DNA of 64,000 bases from a virus (Duplodnaviria; Caudoviricetes): positions 1-64,000 of the IMG/VR virus record IMGVR_UViG_3300010167_000010. One strand, given 5' to 3'. The notes under the pieces are model-generated. The model saw only the letters and a program-made list of their open reading frames with translations, was not told the DNA's origin and ran no database searches. The first letter of the stretch is position 1. Each line of letters starts with the position of its first letter. Positions 12,377-37,298 of this stretch are shown in pieces. The position numbers were made by a program, and so were the translations under genes.

Positions 12377-12396
12377 AAAAAGTTAATCTAATTTAT

Positions 12397-30479: not shown

Positions 30480-30557
30480 ATATTGAACTGAGTCAATAAG
30501 TCCTAGGTAACTCAGTATTGGCCCAGCTACGATCTGGAGAGGGAGCGGGCCTCTTAT

Positions 30558-30629
30558 AGGTTCGTGGTGTTAACAGCAGCATTTCGGTCTCCAAAACCGC
30601 GGGAGCGGGTGCAAATCCTGCCGAACCTG
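30558..30629 (+). tRNA. tRNA-Trp(CCA)
   Basis: loop CT-CCA-AA; AGGTTCG/CGAACCT; G73. Confidence 0.88.
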
Positions 30630-30676
30630 AAAGTAATAAGATATTTAACTTATGATATGTTAATATACTAATTATT

Positions 30677-31411
30677 ATGATTGGGATATATAAAATAACT
30701 AATAAAATAAATAATAAATTTTATATTGGAATGGCAGAAGATATAGAAAAAAGATGGATTAGACATAAAAATTTGGATAATCATTCTTGTATAAAATTAC
30801 ATAGAGCAATGAAAAAATATGGAGTAGAAAATTTCATATTTGAAATTATTGAAGAATGTTCAAGTCAAATTATAGCATGGGAAAAAGAACGTTTTTGGAT
30901 AAAAGAATTAAAAGCTAGAGAATTAGGATATAATATAAATGAAGGCGGACATGGTGGTGACACCTTTTATGGTCAATCTTTAGAAAAACAAAATGAAATA
31001 AAAGAAAAAATAAGAAAAGCAAATTCAAAACCAAATTTTAAATTAAGAGGAAGAATTCAATCAGAAGAAGAAAGAAATAATAGAAGAAAACCTCAAATTG
31101 GAAATAAAAATGCTTGTGGAAAAAGAACAGAAAAACAAAGAAAAAATATAAGTGATTCTTTAATTGGAAAAACATGGGAAGAAAAAATGGGTAAAGAAAA
31201 GTCTGATATAAGAAAAGAAAAGGCTAAAGGAAATAAATATGCTTTTGGCCATAAAAAAACTGAAGAAGTAAAATTTAAATGTGGAAATTCAACTAGAAAT
31301 AAAATTTGGTGGACAAATGGAAAAAATAATATAATAGATTTTAATTGCCCAGAAGGTTTTTGGAAAGGAAGAACTGTATTTTGGAGCAGAAAAGGAATAA
31401 AAAACAAATGA
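30677..31411 (+). mobile_element. free-standing GIY-YIG homing endonuclease (Seg-like, NUMOD tail)
   Basis: IGIYKITNKIN..FYIGMA....RW..H...E...GYNINEGG. Confidence 0.88.
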
Positions 31412-31980
31412 AAATTTTAGCAATGAATAGTAATTATATTCCAATAAGAATTATATCTAAATATACTGCTATATGTAAATTTTATAACAATATGGTAGAA
31501 TTTATTTATATAAAAGGAAATAATTGGGAAGCAAAAAACTGGGAACAATGGCTTGAACTATCATCAAAGAATATTTGGCCAGAAGATACTGACTTTATAA
31601 ATTCAGTAAATTTTCGTATTGCTGTACCAAAGGTAATAAGATTTTTAAATTATTCAAAAATTCCAAAAGTGACATTTAGACTTTCTCGTAAGTCAATCTA
31701 TGAGAGAGACAATTTTACTTGTTACATTTGTGGAAAAAAGTTCGGTGAATCTAAGCTCTCAATAGACCACATGAGACCAGTCTCAAGAGGTGGCGGAAAC
31801 AGCTGGGAGAATATGATCACTTGCTGTGTAAAGTGCAACTGGGACAAAGGCGATAAGACTCTCGATGAGCTCAGACTCAAGCCAAAGTTCATGCCTTACA
31901 AGCCACAGATGTCTAATATGCAAAAGCTAAAAGCATCTGTAACTACATATCAGCCTGAATGGAAACTTTTTGGTTTTTAG
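31408..31980 (+). CDS. HNH endonuclease (McrA-like; start revised from 31345)
   Basis: IYERDNFTCYICG...SIDHMRPVSRGG.NSWENMITCC..CN..KG. Confidence 0.9.
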   Translation: MKILAMNSNYIPIRIISKYTAICKFYNNMVEFIYIKGNNWEAKNWEQWLELSSKNIWPEDTDFINSVNFRIAVPKVIRFLNYSKIPKVTFRLSRKSIYERDNFTCYICGKKFGESKLSIDHMRPVSRGGGNSWENMITCCVKCNWDKGDKTLDELRLKPKFMPYKPQMSNMQKLKASVTTYQPEWKLFGF

Positions 31981-32094
31981 AAGTTAATATAAAATTAAAG
32001 TTGTCCAACTTAAATGGACTGGTGGAGGTGACTTAACCGGTCACCCTATGCGATGGCTCGATGGAGCCCCTTGAGTGGGAAACATCGCTTTTAT

Positions 32095-32165
32095 GTCTCC
32101 GTTGTTCAGTAGAGAGCAAATGGTCTGCAAAATCATTAGAGTTGGTGCAAGTCCAACCGGGGACT
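32095..32165 (+). tRNA. tRNA-Cys(GCA)
   Basis: ATGGT-CTGCAAA-ATCAT; U73. Confidence 0.88.
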
Positions 32166-32166
32166 A

Positions 32167-33381
32167 ATGATGAATATTGAAAAATTAGAATCAAGATTAG
32201 AAGATACTCATAAAACAGTTGCTGTATTAAGAGGAATGCTTGAAGAGTCTTTAATTCAAGAAGTATGTAAATTTTTAATTACTATTGGAAAAACTGAAGC
32301 AACAAAAATTTGTGCTATGTTAGATGAACAAACTTTAGAAACTATAACGTTTGAAATAGCTAGACGAGAATATCTAACTGAATCAGAATGTCAAAATATT
32401 TTAGAAATGTTTTGTAATTTATATGATAATGATAATTTTATAGTTTTAGGTGGAATAAATTATGCCAAAGATTTAATGACAGAAACTGTTGGCGAACAAA
32501 AAGCTATAGATATATTAAATAGAATGTCATCATCATTACAAATTAAACCATTCGACTATATAAGAAGATGTCATCCTATAGATTTATTAAATATAATTCA
32601 ACAAGAACATCCTCAAGTAATAGCTTTAATTTTATCTTATTTAGAACCAAATAAAGCATCTATAATGTTACAAAATTTACCAGCTGAACTAAGATCAGAT
32701 ATTACCAGAAGAATAGCTTGCATGGACAGTATAGAACCAGAAACTTTACGAGAAGTTGAAAGGGTTTTAGAAAAAAAATTATCTACATTATCTGCTGAAG
32801 ATTATTGGAGAAATGCCGGCGGATTGCCAGCGGTTGTAGAAATATTAAATTTGGTTGATAGAGAAGTTGAAAAACAAGTTATAGAAAATTTAGAAGATGA
32901 AGACCCAGAATTAGCTGAAGAAATTAAAAAACGAATGTTTATATTTGAAGATATTGTTATGTTAAATGATCATTATATACAAAAAATATTACGAAATGTA
33001 GATAGTCAAGAGTTAGCTAAAGCATTATTTAATGTAGATTCAGAAGTACAAAATAAAATATTTAGAAATTTTTCTAAACGAGCTGAAGCAATGTTAAAAG
33101 AAGATATGATTTATATGGGTCCATTAAAATTAAAAGATATCGAAGAAGCTCAACAAAAAATAGTTTCTATAATTCGTAAATTGGAAGAAGACGGTGAAAT
33201 TTCACTTAATAGATGTGGTGAAAATGAAATGATTTCTCCTAATCTAAATATAGATGAAAAAGTTCAAGAACAAATGAAAAAAGAACATGAAGAAAATAAA
33301 TTGATATTAAATAGCGAAGAAAAACATAATTTTTTTTGGAAGCTAATTCTTAGAAAAATAAAAAGGTTAACTAATGGGTAA
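32167..33381 (+). CDS. fliG: flagellar motor switch protein FliG
   Basis: [15 protein letters not shown] linker, [22 protein letters not shown]...IEEAQQKIV. Confidence 0.95.
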
Positions 33382-34771
33382 ATACGTATTAGATCAAGAT
33401 GATATTGATGATTTAGTAGAAAATGACGATTGGAAAGAATCTTTTAGTTTTAAAAAAGTTAAGGGAAAACATAAAATGACTGAAGTATTAAGTGCAAAAG
33501 AAATAGACGAATTATTAAAAGCTATTAATGCTGGAGAAACTGATCCAGAAGATTTAAAACCGGCGTGTAATGCTAGAAAAATAAAAATATACGATTTTAA
33601 GCGTCCTGATAAATTTTCCAAAGAACAAATTAGAACTGTTTCAATAATGCATGAAACATTTGCTAGATTAAGTACTACTTTTTTATCGGCCAGATTAAGA
33701 CAATTAGTTCATGTTCATGTTGCTTCAGTTGATCAATTAACTTATGAAGAATTTATTCGTTCTGTACCAACACCTACTACAATGGCAATTATAAACATGG
33801 ATCCATTAAAGGGTAGTGCAATATTAGAAATTGATCCTGCAGTAACATTTGCTTTTATAGATAGATTATGTGGTGGAACTGGAGAAGGTACAAAATCTCA
33901 ACACGAATTAACTGATATTGAAATGAGTTTAATGGAAGGAATGATTGTACGATTATTGGGAAACATAAGAGAAGCCTGGTCACAAATTATAGATTTACGA
34001 CCACGATTAGGACAAGTAGATACTAATCCACAATTTTGTATGATAGTACCACCAACTGAAATGACAGTTCTTGTTACATTTGAAGTAAAGGTTGGTGATG
34101 TAGAAGGAATGTTTAATTTATGTATTCCACATATTTTATTAGAACCTATAATGGATAGAATGTCAGCTGCATATTGGTATGGGAGTGGTTGGAATAATAC
34201 TGTCCCTAAAACTTTTAATCAAGAAAAATTAGATAATATAGATGTTTCTTTAAGAGCTGAATATTTTAAAACTACTATGTCGTTATCACAATTAAGTTAT
34301 TTATTAAATAATAATGGAATAATATTAAATGAAGATCATGAAGAAAATACTGGAAAATTATATATAAATAATTTATATATTGGGGAATTTAAAGAAATAG
34401 ACGTTTTAAGAGAACATAAGAAAATTAAAATAACAAAAATAACAAATATTATGGAGAAAAATTATATGAATGAAAAAAATAATATCGACTTTTCAGGTGG
34501 AAATTTATCTGAAATTAAGGTCCAAATAATTACTGAATTAGGAAGAACTTCTAGAACTTTAAAAGAAATTTCTAGTTTTGGAGAAGGTACAATCTTAGAA
34601 TTAGATAAGTTAGCTGGAGAACCTGTCGATATATTTGCTAATAATGTTTTAATAGCAAAAGGTGAAGTTGTAGTAATAGATGAAAATTTTGGTGTCAGAA
34701 TAACTGATGTTCTTAATCAAAAAGAAAAGGAAGAGGGGCCTTGCAAAGGAGATGAAGCTCAAAACAGCTAG
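33374..34771 (+). CDS. fliM: flagellar switch FliM fused to a FliN/FliY SpoA domain
   Basis: [48 protein letters not shown]; C-terminal [36 protein letters not shown]. Confidence 0.93.
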
Positions 34772-34969
34772 TATTTTATTTTTAATTTTATTTTTAATAA
34801 CGTTTTTAATGATATTATTAAAAGTATCAATTATAAGTTTAATCTTATTTTGTATTACAACAATTTTTGCAATATTTTTAGGAGGATATTTAATATATGA
34901 GCACAATGGTCTTTGTTAGTTGTATAGTTTTATTTTTAGTTTTTTGGATTAAAATAAGTTGGTAATTTT

Positions 34970-35054
34970 GCTCAGGTGGTGGAATTTAGAAGACACCCTA
35001 GCCCGAGGAGCTAGTGCCCGAAAGGGCGTGCAAGTGCAAGTCTTGTCCTGAGTA
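34970..35054 (+). tRNA. tRNA-Leu(GAG)
   Basis: CTAGC-CCGAGGA-GCTAG (C33); long V arm. Confidence 0.85.
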
Positions 35055-35096
35055 ATATGAATGTCGATATGGAAATGTACAATCCATGAAGTTCAT

Positions 35097-35158
35097 ATCT
35101 TGGGAAAGAGCAGGCTAGAAATGACCCCTGGGTGAGTGCGAAGTCTCACCTCCAAGAT
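35097..35158 (+). ncRNA. anticodon-less tRNA-like RNA
   Basis: ATCTTGGG/TCCAAGAT stem plus GGTGAG-loop-CTCACC T-like arm. Confidence 0.45.
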
Positions 35159-35161
35159 TAT

Positions 35162-35236
35162 GCCATCGTAGCCCAACGGCAGAGGCACTACGCTTAGAAC
35201 GTAGAAAGGTGTCGAGTTCAAATCTCACCGATGGTA
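35162..35236 (+). tRNA. tRNA-Leu(UAG) with short variable loop
   Basis: CTACG-CTTAGAA-CGTAG. Confidence 0.82.
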
Positions 35237-35468
35237 CTTATACAATAAATATTATAGAGGTAGATTAAAATTACTTTAAGTGTCCTCTACTAAATAGTAA
35301 TAAAGTGAAGATAAATATTATGAGTATTGAATTTAATCAAAAAGTAGTTTGTGAAGATTGTAAAGAATTACTAGAAAGTGAATACGAGATAATTTCTGAA
35401 GCTACTGATAAATGTGATTTTTGTGATAAAATTGGAAAATTTGAAATAATACTTTTAATTGATTAGAA

Positions 35469-35539
35469 GCCCGATTGATGTAACAGGAGCATGATGGTCC
35501 TACAAACCGTTCGCAATGGTGCAAATCCATTATTGGGTA
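35469..35539 (+). tRNA. tRNA-Val(UAC)
   Basis: ATGGT-CCTACAA-ACCGT (C33). Confidence 0.82.
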
Positions 35540-35552
35540 AAAGGAAAATAAT

Positions 35553-35777
35553 ATGAGTAAGTTCGTAAAACAAAATAAAATGAAAGATTACGAAACTGTT
35601 GTACCTGCAAAAATACTTCATTATATGTTTACTACTCATGGTTTTCCACCAGAAATGGTAAAAGAAATGGCAGAAGAAAAGGGTTTAACAGTTGACTTAG
35701 ATGGTTTTTATAAAATGATGGAATTAGAAAAAGAAAAGTCTAGATCTAATAGTAAATTGATACAAGGTAAAATATAA
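35553..35777 (+). CDS. stand-alone fragment of the alanyl-tRNA synthetase helical domain
   Basis: MFTTHGFPPEMVKEMAEEKGLTVDLDGFYKMMELEKEKSR resembles AlaRS LYDTYGFP.....E.A.E.GL.VD..GF...M..Q+E+SR. Confidence 0.75.
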   Translation: MSKFVKQNKMKDYETVVPAKILHYMFTTHGFPPEMVKEMAEEKGLTVDLDGFYKMMELEKEKSRSNSKLIQGKI

Positions 35778-35817
35778 AGCCCCGCGTCTGGCAGCTTCGG
35801 CGTATGACGCACTTTAA

Positions 35818-35889
35818 GCAGTATATGAGTAGATAGCGACTCACGTGATTGCCAATCATGAGAGGCGGGTGCGTGTCCCGCATACTGCT
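35818..35889 (+). tRNA. tRNA-Gly(GCC)
   Basis: CGTGA-TTGCCAA-TCATG; U73; atypical T loop. Confidence 0.75.
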
Positions 35890-35891
35890 AT

Positions 35892-35974
35892 GTGAACGTG
35901 CGCGAGTGGTTAAAGCGGCTTGATTGTGGATCAAGTGGAGAAATCCATCGGGAGTTCAAATCTCCTCGTTCACC
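35892..35974 (+). tRNA. tRNA-His(GUG) with long variable arm
   Basis: CTTGA-TTGTGGA-TCAAG; C73; V arm TGGA-GAAA-TCCA. Confidence 0.85.
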
Positions 35975-35986
35975 TAACTAATTATT

Positions 35987-36349
35987 ATGAAAAAATGTTG
36001 TAAATGCAAAAACAAACAAGAAGATAAACAACCAGATTACTATTATTATGATAGAAATCCCAGAGTAACCTCTATGAGACGATTTATAAAAGAACAATAT
36101 GCATTATGGTTAGCAGAACAAAGATCCAAACCACAACAGAAAAAAGATGATGGAGAATGGAATTATAGATTTAAATTTGGAGACGTATCACCAAAACAAG
36201 CTTGGCAAACTTATTCAAAATATATTGAAGACAATGCTTGTAGATATCCAGTTTGGCCAAATTTTCATGGTCGAATGACTTCTGTTTCATCATTAGATAC
36301 TTCAAATATTAGAACTGTACAAAAATTTGGCACAACTTGGAGAGTATAA
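35987..36349 (+). CDS. hypothetical late protein
   Basis: ACTAATTA 10 nt upstream. Confidence 0.6.
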   Translation: MKKCCKCKNKQEDKQPDYYYYDRNPRVTSMRRFIKEQYALWLAEQRSKPQQKKDDGEWNYRFKFGDVSPKQAWQTYSKYIEDNACRYPVWPNFHGRMTSVSSLDTSNIRTVQKFGTTWRV

Positions 36350-36662
36350 ATGTTTATTTTTAGTTTAATAGTTGCTATTCTTGTTATAGTAATTATTATA
36401 AAAATTTCATTTAGTATTGGTTATCAAAAAGGCCATGAAAATGGTTATATGGAAGCAGAATATCGTTTCAATAAAAAATCTACAACTTATGCAAATCCTT
36501 TAGATGAAGATTTAACTGGGTATATTTAACATGTCAGCATCTGGGCGAGTATGGGAGCAGAAAGCAAGGAGATAAGGCGATGAGCGGCTCGAGCGTGGTC
36601 GTCGTGAACGGGGCGGAACCGACCGCTGGCAAACCTATATTAGTTAATTTAACTAAATAAAT

Positions 36663-37298
36663 ATGATAGGTATTTATTTAATTACAAATTTAACTAATAA
36701 AAAACGATATGTTGGTAAATCTAAAAATATTGAAAATAGATGGAAACAACATAAAAAATTAAATGATGGTTATAGACCGTCTTACTTACAAAGTGCCTTT
36801 TTAAAAGAAGGGATAGAAAATTTTTCTTTTGAAGTTTGGGAAGAATGTATTTTAGAAAAATTAAATGAAAGAGAAAAATTTTGGATTAAAGAATTAGAAA
36901 CGAGAAATCCCGAATTTGGATATAATTTAACAAAGGGTGGTGATGGGGGAGATACTTTTTATATTCAATCTGAAGAAAAACAAAATGAATTAAGAAAAAT
37001 TTTTAGTGAAAATAGTAAAAAATATAATACTATTAAATATCTTCAAACAGATAGAGCTGAACAATCAAGAAAACCTCATAGAAAAAAATTAGGCCAAAAT
37101 GCTAAAGGTAAAACATGGCAATGGAATGAAGAAAAAAGAAAAAATTATATACCTTCAAATAAAGGAAAATTAATGAATAATGAACAAAAAGAAAAACAAA
37201 AACAATATCATTGGTTTAATAATGGGATTATTCAAATAATGTCAATAAAATGTCCGGAAAATTTTAATTCAGGAATGTTAAAAAGAAAAACTAACTAA
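36663..37298 (+). mobile_element. second GIY-YIG homing endonuclease
   Basis: IGIYLITNL..KRYVGKS....RW..H...GYNLTKGG. Confidence 0.88.

Follow-up and report, generated by a model that had tools for sequence, protein, structure and literature searches.

Switch genes in a phage tRNA island

The DNA analyzed here, called the window in the following, comprises the first 64 kb of the virus record IMGVR_UViG_3300010167_000010 and carries two intact genes for proteins of the flagellar switch, fliG and a fliM that is extended by a FliN/FliY-type sequence. The complete record (G000) has a length of 329,018 bp, direct terminal repeats (DTR), a CheckV completeness of 100% and a GC content of 28.5%. Coordinates without prefix refer to the window and coordinates with the prefix G000 to the complete record; P-numbers denote the FliG and FliM relatives that were compared and L-numbers the contigs with their gene contexts. 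Both genes are located within a tRNA island at 25-42 kb, which consists of 19 tRNA genes and interspersed open reading frames (ORFs) resembling GIY-YIG and HNH homing endonucleases. They overlap by 8 nt and are sited between tRNA-Cys and tRNA-Leu(GAG), as listed below (lengths in amino acids, aa).

31982..31992, + strand: phage promoter-like motif AGTTAATATAA, ~100 nt upstream of tRNA-Cys
32095..32165, + strand: tRNA-Cys(GCA), identified with ARAGORN; the first fliG ATG lies 1 nt beyond the tRNA end
32167..33381, + strand: fliG, 404 aa; the gene caller took the second ATG, which gives 403 aa
33374..34771, + strand: fliM-fliN/Y fusion ("long FliM"), 465 aa; its start overlaps the fliG stop by 8 nt
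34969..35055, + strand: tRNA-Leu(GAG), downstream boundary of the fliG-fliM unit

The GC content at third codon positions (GC3) is 10.6% for fliG and 12.9% for fliM, compared with 63% for the fliG of Leadbettera, and the composition of both genes is ameliorated to that of the phage. In three termite-gut metagenome runs one Logan contig each, with no more than one mismatch, covered positions 30500-36500 or 30600-35663 and bridged tRNA-Cys to tRNA-Leu. The source sample is possibly among these three best runs; a fourth run, which derived from a different study and is the independent one, contained 100%-identical fragments, one of them bridging the fliM end and tRNA-Leu. On the 328-kb contig of a sister phage (L004) fliG-fliM is found at the same place of the tRNA array, directly followed by tRNA-Leu(GAG). 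The FliG and FliM proteins of this sister phage share only ~58% identity with those of the window, with synteny kept. Moreover, a 749-aa ORF showed weak matches to T4-type portal proteins in two libraries. Independent assemblies, phage-like composition, synteny at ~58% identity and the portal matches together exclude chimerism and a recent capture. The pair has the properties of host-derived auxiliary genes, comparable to auxiliary metabolic genes (AMG): it lies in a bona fide phage genome, possesses close cellular homologs, is adapted to the phage and is conserved in phage relatives. Judging from these sequence data, the set of cytoplasmic ring (C-ring) genes is a long-standing resident of a jumbo phage lineage.

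Some further observations concern the expression of the unit. The only Shine-Dalgarno-like bases (GGGGA) for the first fliG ATG (32160-32172) fall within tRNA-Cys; either the unprocessed precursor would be translated, or 3' processing of the tRNA would leave a near-leaderless mRNA. The motif AGTTAATATAA was found 17 times in the window with at most one mismatch, exclusively on the + strand and in many cases just 5' of ORF starts (e.g., at 12381, 13688, 31982, 36642, 42701, and 44207), and we infer that it is a candidate phage promoter element. Scans of the DNA for sigma-70 promoters and terminators gave no signal over background. ORFs similar to homing endonucleases of the GIY-YIG type (MIGIYKITN.../MIGIYLITN...) and the HNH type flank the fliG-fliM unit at 30677-31411, 31345-31980, and 36663-37298. 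They may help genes to move between co-infecting phages.

Architecture of the FliG protein

The phage FliG was recognized by TIGR00207 with 371 bits (cut-off 226.7), and the families FliG_N (PF14842), FliG_M (PF14841) and FliG_C (PF01706) all scored above their cut-offs. It shares 64-66% identity with canonical FliG of termite-gut Treponema and Leadbettera across 81-83% of its length, and the fold of its model matches the solved structures 8UMD, 3HJL, 1LKV, and 1QC7. The following segments were distinguished.

32167..32259, + strand: N-terminal extension (residues 1-31), from the multiple alignment; no transmembrane (TM) segment
32584..32799, + strand: middle domain, PF14841 with 95 bits
32884..33207, + strand: C-terminal torque domain, PF01706 with 143 bits
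33235..33381, + strand: C-terminal tail (residues 357-404, 48 residues), from the alignment

In the middle domain and its surroundings the EHPQ(R) motif for FliM binding, the partner Arg (RRIA) and the Gly-Gly hinge (AGG) are all aligned with the canonical sequences. The torque domain is 55-60% identical to FliG_C of T. maritima and superposes on it with template modeling (TM) scores of 0.87-0.96. For the torque residues we presume the E. coli numbering K264, R281, D288, D289, and R297. The equivalents of R281, D288, and D289 are kept as R, E, and D; K stands in place of R297 and F in place of K264 (LAKALF), so that the charge of the K264 type is lost. Other FliGs have F or M at this position (P0122, L103, L004) or K (L008, L013, L105).

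FliG_N was recognized with 94 bits; its first helix is diverged, and a helix resembling the tail of FliF lies upstream in cis. In Leadbettera the C-terminus of FliF consists of a TM helix, which is followed by ...EHPEDVAQLIRTWLLEE. The extension of the window FliG aligns in the multiple alignment with this FliF sequence and with the FliF-tail fusions of L008, L013, and L105, and is predicted to form helices 2-10 and 14-26 at a predicted local distance difference test score (pLDDT) of ~84. The N-termini of the FliGs of L008, L013, and L105 consist of a TM-like hydrophobic segment and, behind it, HPETVAKLIRTWLL, QPKNAAQLIRTWLV or RPENIAQLIRTWLV (blastp E values 2-4e-5); these proteins are clear natural fusions of a FliF tail to FliG. 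P0122 and L004 contain a weaker, TM-less copy of the FliF tail (E 0.03-0.04). The window FliG has only a degenerate, TM-less stretch of 14 residues with no significant pairwise match; its N-terminus is probably the decayed remnant of the C-terminal FliF helix that binds FliG. The C-terminal tail, with predicted helices at low to moderate pLDDT, is a shortened form of a tail of 100-130 residues which is common to the phage proteins of L004, L008, and L103 and the chromosomal protein of L006.

FliM with a second SpoA domain and a second docking peptide

The long FliM was recognized by TIGR01397 with 304 bits (cut-off 219.6) over residues 37-322, and its AlphaFold model has a mean pLDDT of 80.5. 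Its core and canonical Treponema FliM share 81% identity over 230 columns. From the N- to the C-terminus the following elements were assigned, including two candidate docking sites for phosphorylated CheY (CheY-P).

33386..33418, + strand: extra (first) peptide of the CheY-P docking type (residues 5-15, 11 residues), from the alignment; predicted helix 8-16
33476..33478, + strand: internal ATG (Met35) with its own Shine-Dalgarno-like site AAGGG
33485..33517, + strand: canonical CheY-P docking peptide (residues 38-48, 11 residues), aligned with MTEVLSQEEIDQLL of canonical Treponema FliM
33590..34162, + strand: FliM middle domain (residues 73-263), PF02154 with 253 bits
34223..34441, + strand: SpoA1, the diverged C-terminal SpoA domain of FliM itself (residues 284-356), FliMN_C with E=0.002
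34442..34504, + strand: linker with the motif EKNYMxEKNN, diagnostic of long FliMs with a type A tail (see below)
34505..34714, + strand: SpoA2, a SpoA domain of the FliN/FliY type (residues 378-447), PF01052 (FliMN_C) with 92 bits

The two docking peptides are separated by a basic linker, and the canonical one is predicted to form a helix at residues 41-53. The middle domain was modeled with pLDDT values of 94-98 and reaches TM scores of 0.94-0.97 to FliM_M of T. maritima and H. pylori. It contains the GGXG motif for FliG binding (G167, G168, G170) in near-invariant alignment columns. SpoA1 is beta-rich (pLDDT 84-89) and aligns with the C-terminal SpoA domain of the canonical 343-aa Treponema FliM. 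SpoA2 (residues 378-449) passes the FliN model TIGR02480 with 90.1 bits against a cut-off of 84.05 and shares 63% identity with T. maritima FliN; in the model both SpoA domains are folded with confidence. The module of both SpoA domains superposes on the Salmonella FliM(SPOA)::FliN structure 4YXB (E 5e-12, TM score 0.70, 178 columns), and the designation as a FliM-FliN fusion is therefore apt. The FliY model NF005995 (PRK08119) stayed at 130 bits, below its cut-off of 218; the middle domain is of the FliM type PF02154, and the CheC-like phosphatase domain of FliY is absent from the phage fusion.

The gene order in Treponema is fliM-fliY, and FliY begins with MSDGALSQDEIDALL and terminates in a SpoA domain of the FliN type. 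An unfused state is found in the related phage L013, in which a 341-aa FliM is followed by a separate ORF of 121 aa, a truncated FliY tail. The deduced donor of SpoA2 is host FliY, the gene adjoining fliM. The FliY-derived part of the protein may be the tail only; perhaps the first peptide belongs to it, too. Three more distant relatives (P0295, P0381, P0259) also have two peptides, and the first one follows the FliY signature DG[ST]LSQxEIDA[LM]L. The extra dock may accordingly derive from FliY, with the flanks of the window copy diverged too far for a decision between FliY and FliM type.

Among the 120 best relatives two docking-type motifs were detected only in the window protein and in P0002-P0006 and P0008, and in these six relatives the first peptide is cleaner than in the window (LSQEEID or LAQEEID). 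The genomic context is known for four of the doubled-peptide forms (P0001-P0006, P0008), all of which lie on phage contigs of 174-329 kb. Residues 1-34 of FliM alone, folded together with CheY of T. pallidum (CHEY_TREPA), gave a score of 0.78, and the best of three controls reached 0.30; the mark of 0.78 was attained by 58 of 80 solved complexes and by two of 110 mismatched pairs. The runs share at least 74% of the contacts at a partner pLDDT of at least 66. Contacts were predicted between CheY residues 108-127, 134, and 138 and peptide residues 3-8, 11-12, and 14-15. Complexes of CheY with the N-terminus of FliM are already solved, and the extra peptide is predicted to resemble this known docking mode, which is no proof of binding.

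Nine phage FliMs of tail type B (P0007, P0009, P0011, P0014, P0016, P0033, P0034, P0037, and P0050) lack a second docking peptide. They share a conserved polybasic N-terminal tag of ~20 residues (MNRKRKNRKRQNKAKK...) directly before the acidic CheY-docking peptide.

An earlier note on this DNA, made from the sequence alone, had described most of this arrangement, and its description proved accurate: the two intact genes between tRNA-Cys and tRNA-Leu, the phage-like, AT-rich codons, a FliM core close to that of Treponema, the additional N-terminal docking motif, a FliN/FliY SpoA domain behind a diverged FliM C-terminus, and a FliG with diverged N-terminus, added tail and LAKALF. The chimeric assembly which the note advised to check for is excluded by the independent assemblies.

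Occurrence of related genes

Nine phage contexts with fliG and fliM were found. In addition to the window and the 328-kb sister contig they include a 183-kb contig, on which genes for T4 RNA ligase, primase and thymidine kinase are present, and a 174-kb ENA contig (P0005). On the latter, ~5 kb upstream of fliG-fliM, lie genes for a CheY-like receiver (122 aa), CheX (157 aa) and an HATPase_c protein of kinase type (637 aa), and the chemotaxis module of this phage is fuller than that of the window's phage. L008, L103, and L105 have a common block of DnaJ, MJ0330_N, fliM/fliG and T4 portal genes. In L104 (6840-10973) two tandem copies of a long fliM lie beside a D5-type primase gene, and each copy is followed by a FliG fragment of the N and M domains only. 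L013 with its unfused FliM is also counted among the nine. For these contexts and for the chromosomal pairs described below, record titles and run metadata indicate the termite hindgut.

A scan of viral contigs with FliM as a single protein gave no matches, and an alignment-based scan was required. The latter detected a truncated FliM (32% identity) and a FliN-like ORF in a 306-kb phage (L016, IMGVR_UViG_3300009093_000034).

Pairs of FliG and long FliM are also encoded on Treponema chromosomes (L006, L007, L017). Neighboring genes are ffh, gpsA and those for RNase R and PBP1 in L006, and fab and acc genes together with a tRNA synthetase gene in L007. The GC content of the chromosomal pairs lies 5-6 points under that of their flanks. 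A further contig of a Treponema assembly, the 113-kb L005 (Treponema sp. R8-4-B8, GCA_054786175.1), encodes the long FliM P0103, for which the core tree shows a weak grouping with phage P0002. P0103 lies ~10 kb from a FliG_C protein, with an AAA ATPase and three TPR proteins in between and no housekeeping genes in view. The L005 DNA of this assembly may be that of a phage or prophage and would then provide a physical link to the host.

An exhaustive search gave 1,038 representative clusters with E values of 1e-30 or lower. Besides the long FliMs it yielded further fusions, namely dozens of FliM_M-FliG_MC proteins of ~600-640 aa as well as FliM-SpoA×2-FliG and FliG_M-FliM forms. P0257, P0258, P0261, P0263, and ~40 more are single-chain FliM_M-FliG_M-FliG_C proteins without docking peptide, SpoA domains and FliG_N. 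On L107 such a FliM_M-FliG_MC protein has a FliN of 91 aa and a mini-flagellin of 96 aa as neighbors. The contig of P0257 (4.2 kb) is too short to be classed as phage or cell.

"Microcystis phage MaAM05" (MW495066.1, L001, 274 kb) was considered as a precedent and rejected. Its fliM-fliY-like genes sit amid bacterial housekeeping neighbors (murJ, fadM, fabI, engB, and pomA), and the stretch looks like a bacterial chromosome. Fragments labeled as Listeria and Salmonella phage are short records without annotation.

Relationships of the long FliMs

A tree of the FliM core columns was a poorly resolved star, with the canonical FliMs tightly clustered and longer branches leading to the long forms. 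Nevertheless, the chromosomal long FliMs constitute one clade (Shimodaira-Hasegawa-like approximate likelihood ratio test, SH-aLRT, 99), and every protein from a phage context falls outside of it. The tree of the C-terminal module separates two tail types. Type B (100/100) comprises the portal-adjacent phage forms, and type A includes all forms with doubled peptide. The linker motif EKNYMxEKNN was found in 21 sequences, every one of them of type A, the chromosomal clade included. Within type A the chromosomal clade (99/95) is nested in a set of 18 rows which also contains the window protein, P0002, and P0008 (99/96). A tree that holds the non-chromosomal type A rows together was rejected by the approximately unbiased (AU) test with p 0.005 and a log-likelihood difference of 23.6, the p value being optimistic, as the tested group was named after a quick tree had been seen. 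A root near type B is plausible, because the unfused L013 groups with type-B-like cores. The nested chromosomal clade, this plausible root and the GC content of the chromosomal pairs favor a transfer of the accessory pair from phage to Treponema chromosome.

Motility and chemotaxis genes elsewhere in the genome

The statement that the switch genes come with no other flagellar genes is correct within the window and fails for the complete genome, in which five further ORFs related to motility or signaling were assigned.

G000:306492-307346: FlaB-type flagellin, 284 aa, full-length
G000:310402-310668: stand-alone FliN, 88 aa
G000:~320902-321282: docking-peptide protein, 126 aa, found by motif scan; holds TEVLSQEEIDQLLTAIN, an exact canonical FliM N-terminus
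G000:179449-181269, + strand: Cache-HAMP-MCP chemoreceptor (methyl-accepting chemotaxis protein, MCP), 606 aa, 39% identity to a termite-gut Treponema protein
G000:~164185-166020, - strand: dCache-HisKA-HATPase-REC hybrid sensor kinase, 51% identity to a termite-gut Treponema protein

The phage FlaB matches flagellins of 284-286 aa from end to end with up to 357 bits, and Leptospira FlaB1 with 298 bits. The C-terminus of the docking-peptide protein (L102:1403-1783) reads ...ELFD. A receiver domain at ~164 kb was considered as CheY and rejected, since it is part of the hybrid sensor kinase. Searches of the complete record for CheX, CheW and MotA/ExbB gave no match, and neither FliH nor FliI nor FlhA was among its host-like matches. 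PHROGs contained no family matching FliG, FliM, FliN or the docking-peptide protein. Another motor-associated module may be represented by a 332-aa ORF without Pfam family at G000:85382-86380 (- strand; L101:1883-2881), which along 174 residues is 52% identical to the C-terminal region of the FliG_C-containing protein in L005 (Treponema sp. R8-4-B8).

Role during infection

It is highly probable that the phage uses these genes for a control of host motility, be it by participation in the motor or by interference with it. For the more specific reading, that fliG and the fused fliM-fliN/Y are a host-derived C-ring set which re-tunes or maintains motility and chemotaxis of the infected cell, we consider the chances to be evenly balanced. 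The subunits appear competent for assembly, since EHPQ and its partner Arg, GGXG, the main torque charges and two SpoA domains are kept. Contacts between neighbors are hard-wired by the FliY-derived SpoA domain on FliM and, probably, by the FliF-tail remnant on FliG. The docking peptides per FliM are doubled, which would double the capacity for CheY-P, and the phosphatase domain of FliY is left out. FliM and FliN are exchangeable subunits of working motors in E. coli, and subunits made by the phage could therefore enter host motors.

Under this reading fliG and fliM-fliN/Y would be expressed from the phage tRNA island, and their products would enter the motors of the periplasmic flagella during infection or replace exchangeable switch subunits there. 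The motors might thus be kept running past host shut-off and capture and read CheY-P with altered strength. The phage chemoreceptor would provide an input chosen by the phage, and together with the flagellin the infected cell would be motile under rules set by the phage.

Several points weigh against a re-tuned, working motor. The FliF-tail remnant could fill the FliF-binding groove of FliG and thereby keep FliG away from the membrane/supramembrane (MS) ring, the separate docking-peptide protein resembles a decoy for CheY-P, and the charge of the K264 type is lost; these three observations agree with interference no less than with replacement. The predicted CheY complex may have passed by its likeness to the solved CheY-FliM-N structures, and was obtained with a stand-in CheY without phosphorylation. 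A start at Met35 may yield, for part of the product, a FliM without the extra peptide. In addition, the phage host is probably a termite-gut Treponema, an assignment from homology and habitat only.

The main rival, a less probable one, takes the proteins as a CheY-P sink or a dominant-negative switch that assembles off the motor or poisons the ring and, together with the docking-peptide protein, titrates CheY-P; the motors would be uncoupled from chemotaxis, with a smooth-swimming lock, or slowed. It would account for the total of three docking peptides in the phage, of which FliM carries two and the 126-aa protein the third, and for a fusion without the FliY phosphatase domain, as well as for the altered K264 position and a FliF-tail remnant in cis that could block docking to the MS ring. 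Many relatives are even more stripped-down, including the FliM_M-FliG_MC proteins without docking peptide. However, all tested ring-building and main torque motifs are kept in the window proteins, the chemoreceptor and flagellin of the phage would serve no purpose once chemotaxis or rotation had been abolished, and a peptide alone would suffice as a sink, which makes two conserved multi-domain proteins superfluous. These findings also bear on the effects which the earlier note had proposed for the motor. An altered switching or CheY-P capture is reasonable in view of the docking prediction (0.78 versus 0.30). Jamming of the motor or saving of energy fits poorly with the conserved EHPQ motif, Arg, Gly-Gly hinge, torque charges and GGXG, and with the co-carried chemoreceptor and flagellin. 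An exclusion of flagellotropic competitors is unlikely, because the flagella of spirochaetes are periplasmic (PMC7225975).

More far-reaching, and doubtful in our estimation, is a version in which a self-contained, fused switch complex replaces the host C-ring, phage chemoreceptor and flagellin steer the cell ("virocell chemotaxis"), and phages seeded the chromosomal FliG/FliM paralogs of Treponema.

A use outside of motility, either as platform for the flagellar type III export gate, by which phage FlaB and other proteins would reach the periplasm, or as polar scaffold, is improbable. The SpoA domains of FliM and FliN do dock the export ATPase FliH/FliI (title of PDB entry 4YXC), and the phage encodes an export substrate, the FlaB flagellin, and an extra FliN; yet the host-like matches of the phage comprise no FliH, FliI or FlhA, and the doubled CheY-docking peptides and the MCP indicate signaling. 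That the genes are a neutral passenger or an artefact, i.e., a recent host capture, a mis-binned contig or a chimera, is hardly credible: public "phage" records can indeed be bacterial, as MaAM05 with its fliM amid murJ, fabI and engB illustrates, but here independent assemblies concur, the composition is fully ameliorated, the sister phage keeps synteny at 58% identity, ORFs and motifs are intact and conserved, and nine phage contexts are known.

Relation to known switch proteins

The protein families as such are known. What is new is that they reside in phages, occur as natural fusions and possess a doubled dock, and that chromosomal paralogs apparently originated from phages. Canonical FliG (from the fliE-fliF-fliG-fliH operon), FliM and FliY (from fliM-fliY) of Treponema and Leadbettera belong to the same families as the phage proteins and have the docking peptide and the key motifs in common with them. 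In contrast to these, the phage genes are AT-ameliorated and lie outside any flagellar operon, FliM possesses an extra dock and an extra SpoA domain, and FliG is distinguished by the FliF-tail remnant, the tail and the exchange of K for F.

The same neighbors of the ring are covalently joined in the Salmonella construct FliM(SPOA)::FliN (4YXB/4YXC). The phage joins are natural and conserved, and differ in that the junction comes after a full FliM and the donor of SpoA2 is FliY, not FliN. Related phages join the second TM helix (TM2) and the tail of FliF to FliG, as in laboratory FliF-FliG fusions. Salmonella mutants with FliM-FliN and FliF-FliG fusions, the work of Kihara et al. in 1996 and Francis et al. 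in 1992, are said to be still motile. The natural FliM-FliN, FliF-FliG, and FliG-FliM fusions together with the doubled docks repeat such classic laboratory fusions, and represent ready variants for studies of C-ring stoichiometry, tethering to the MS ring, CheY-P capture and switching.

Host metabolic genes are known from phages, as are small inhibitors of pili. The proteins Tip and Aqs1 of Pseudomonas phages act on type IV pili and represent the same phage control of host movement; they are small inhibitors unrelated to machine parts, whereas structural subunits are encoded here. In the searchable literature, with most subscription journals outside its coverage, no description of phage-encoded C-ring genes was found. 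If the phage proteins enter host motors, a virus would rewrite swimming and chemotaxis by swapping motor parts, and it would do so in the termite hindgut, an ecosystem in which the motility of spirochaetes plays a central role.

Accessory FliG paralogs of spirochaetes are known from Borrelia (FliG1/FliG2, PMC7225975). Like the phage pair, these and the Treponema pairs of L006, L007, and L017 are extra copies of switch proteins outside the main operon. The chromosomal long FliMs have the two-SpoA architecture and the EKNYM linker of the window protein, but differ by a single docking peptide, and in their FliG partners FliG_N is divergent or missing. Judging by their nested position in the tree, spirochaetes may have obtained accessory switch paralogs from phages. 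The jumbo phage L016 resembles the window in the possession of FliM and FliN-type genes; its FliM is truncated, whereas the phage of the window encodes a full FliG, a GGXG-bearing FliM with doubled peptide and a wider set of motility genes.

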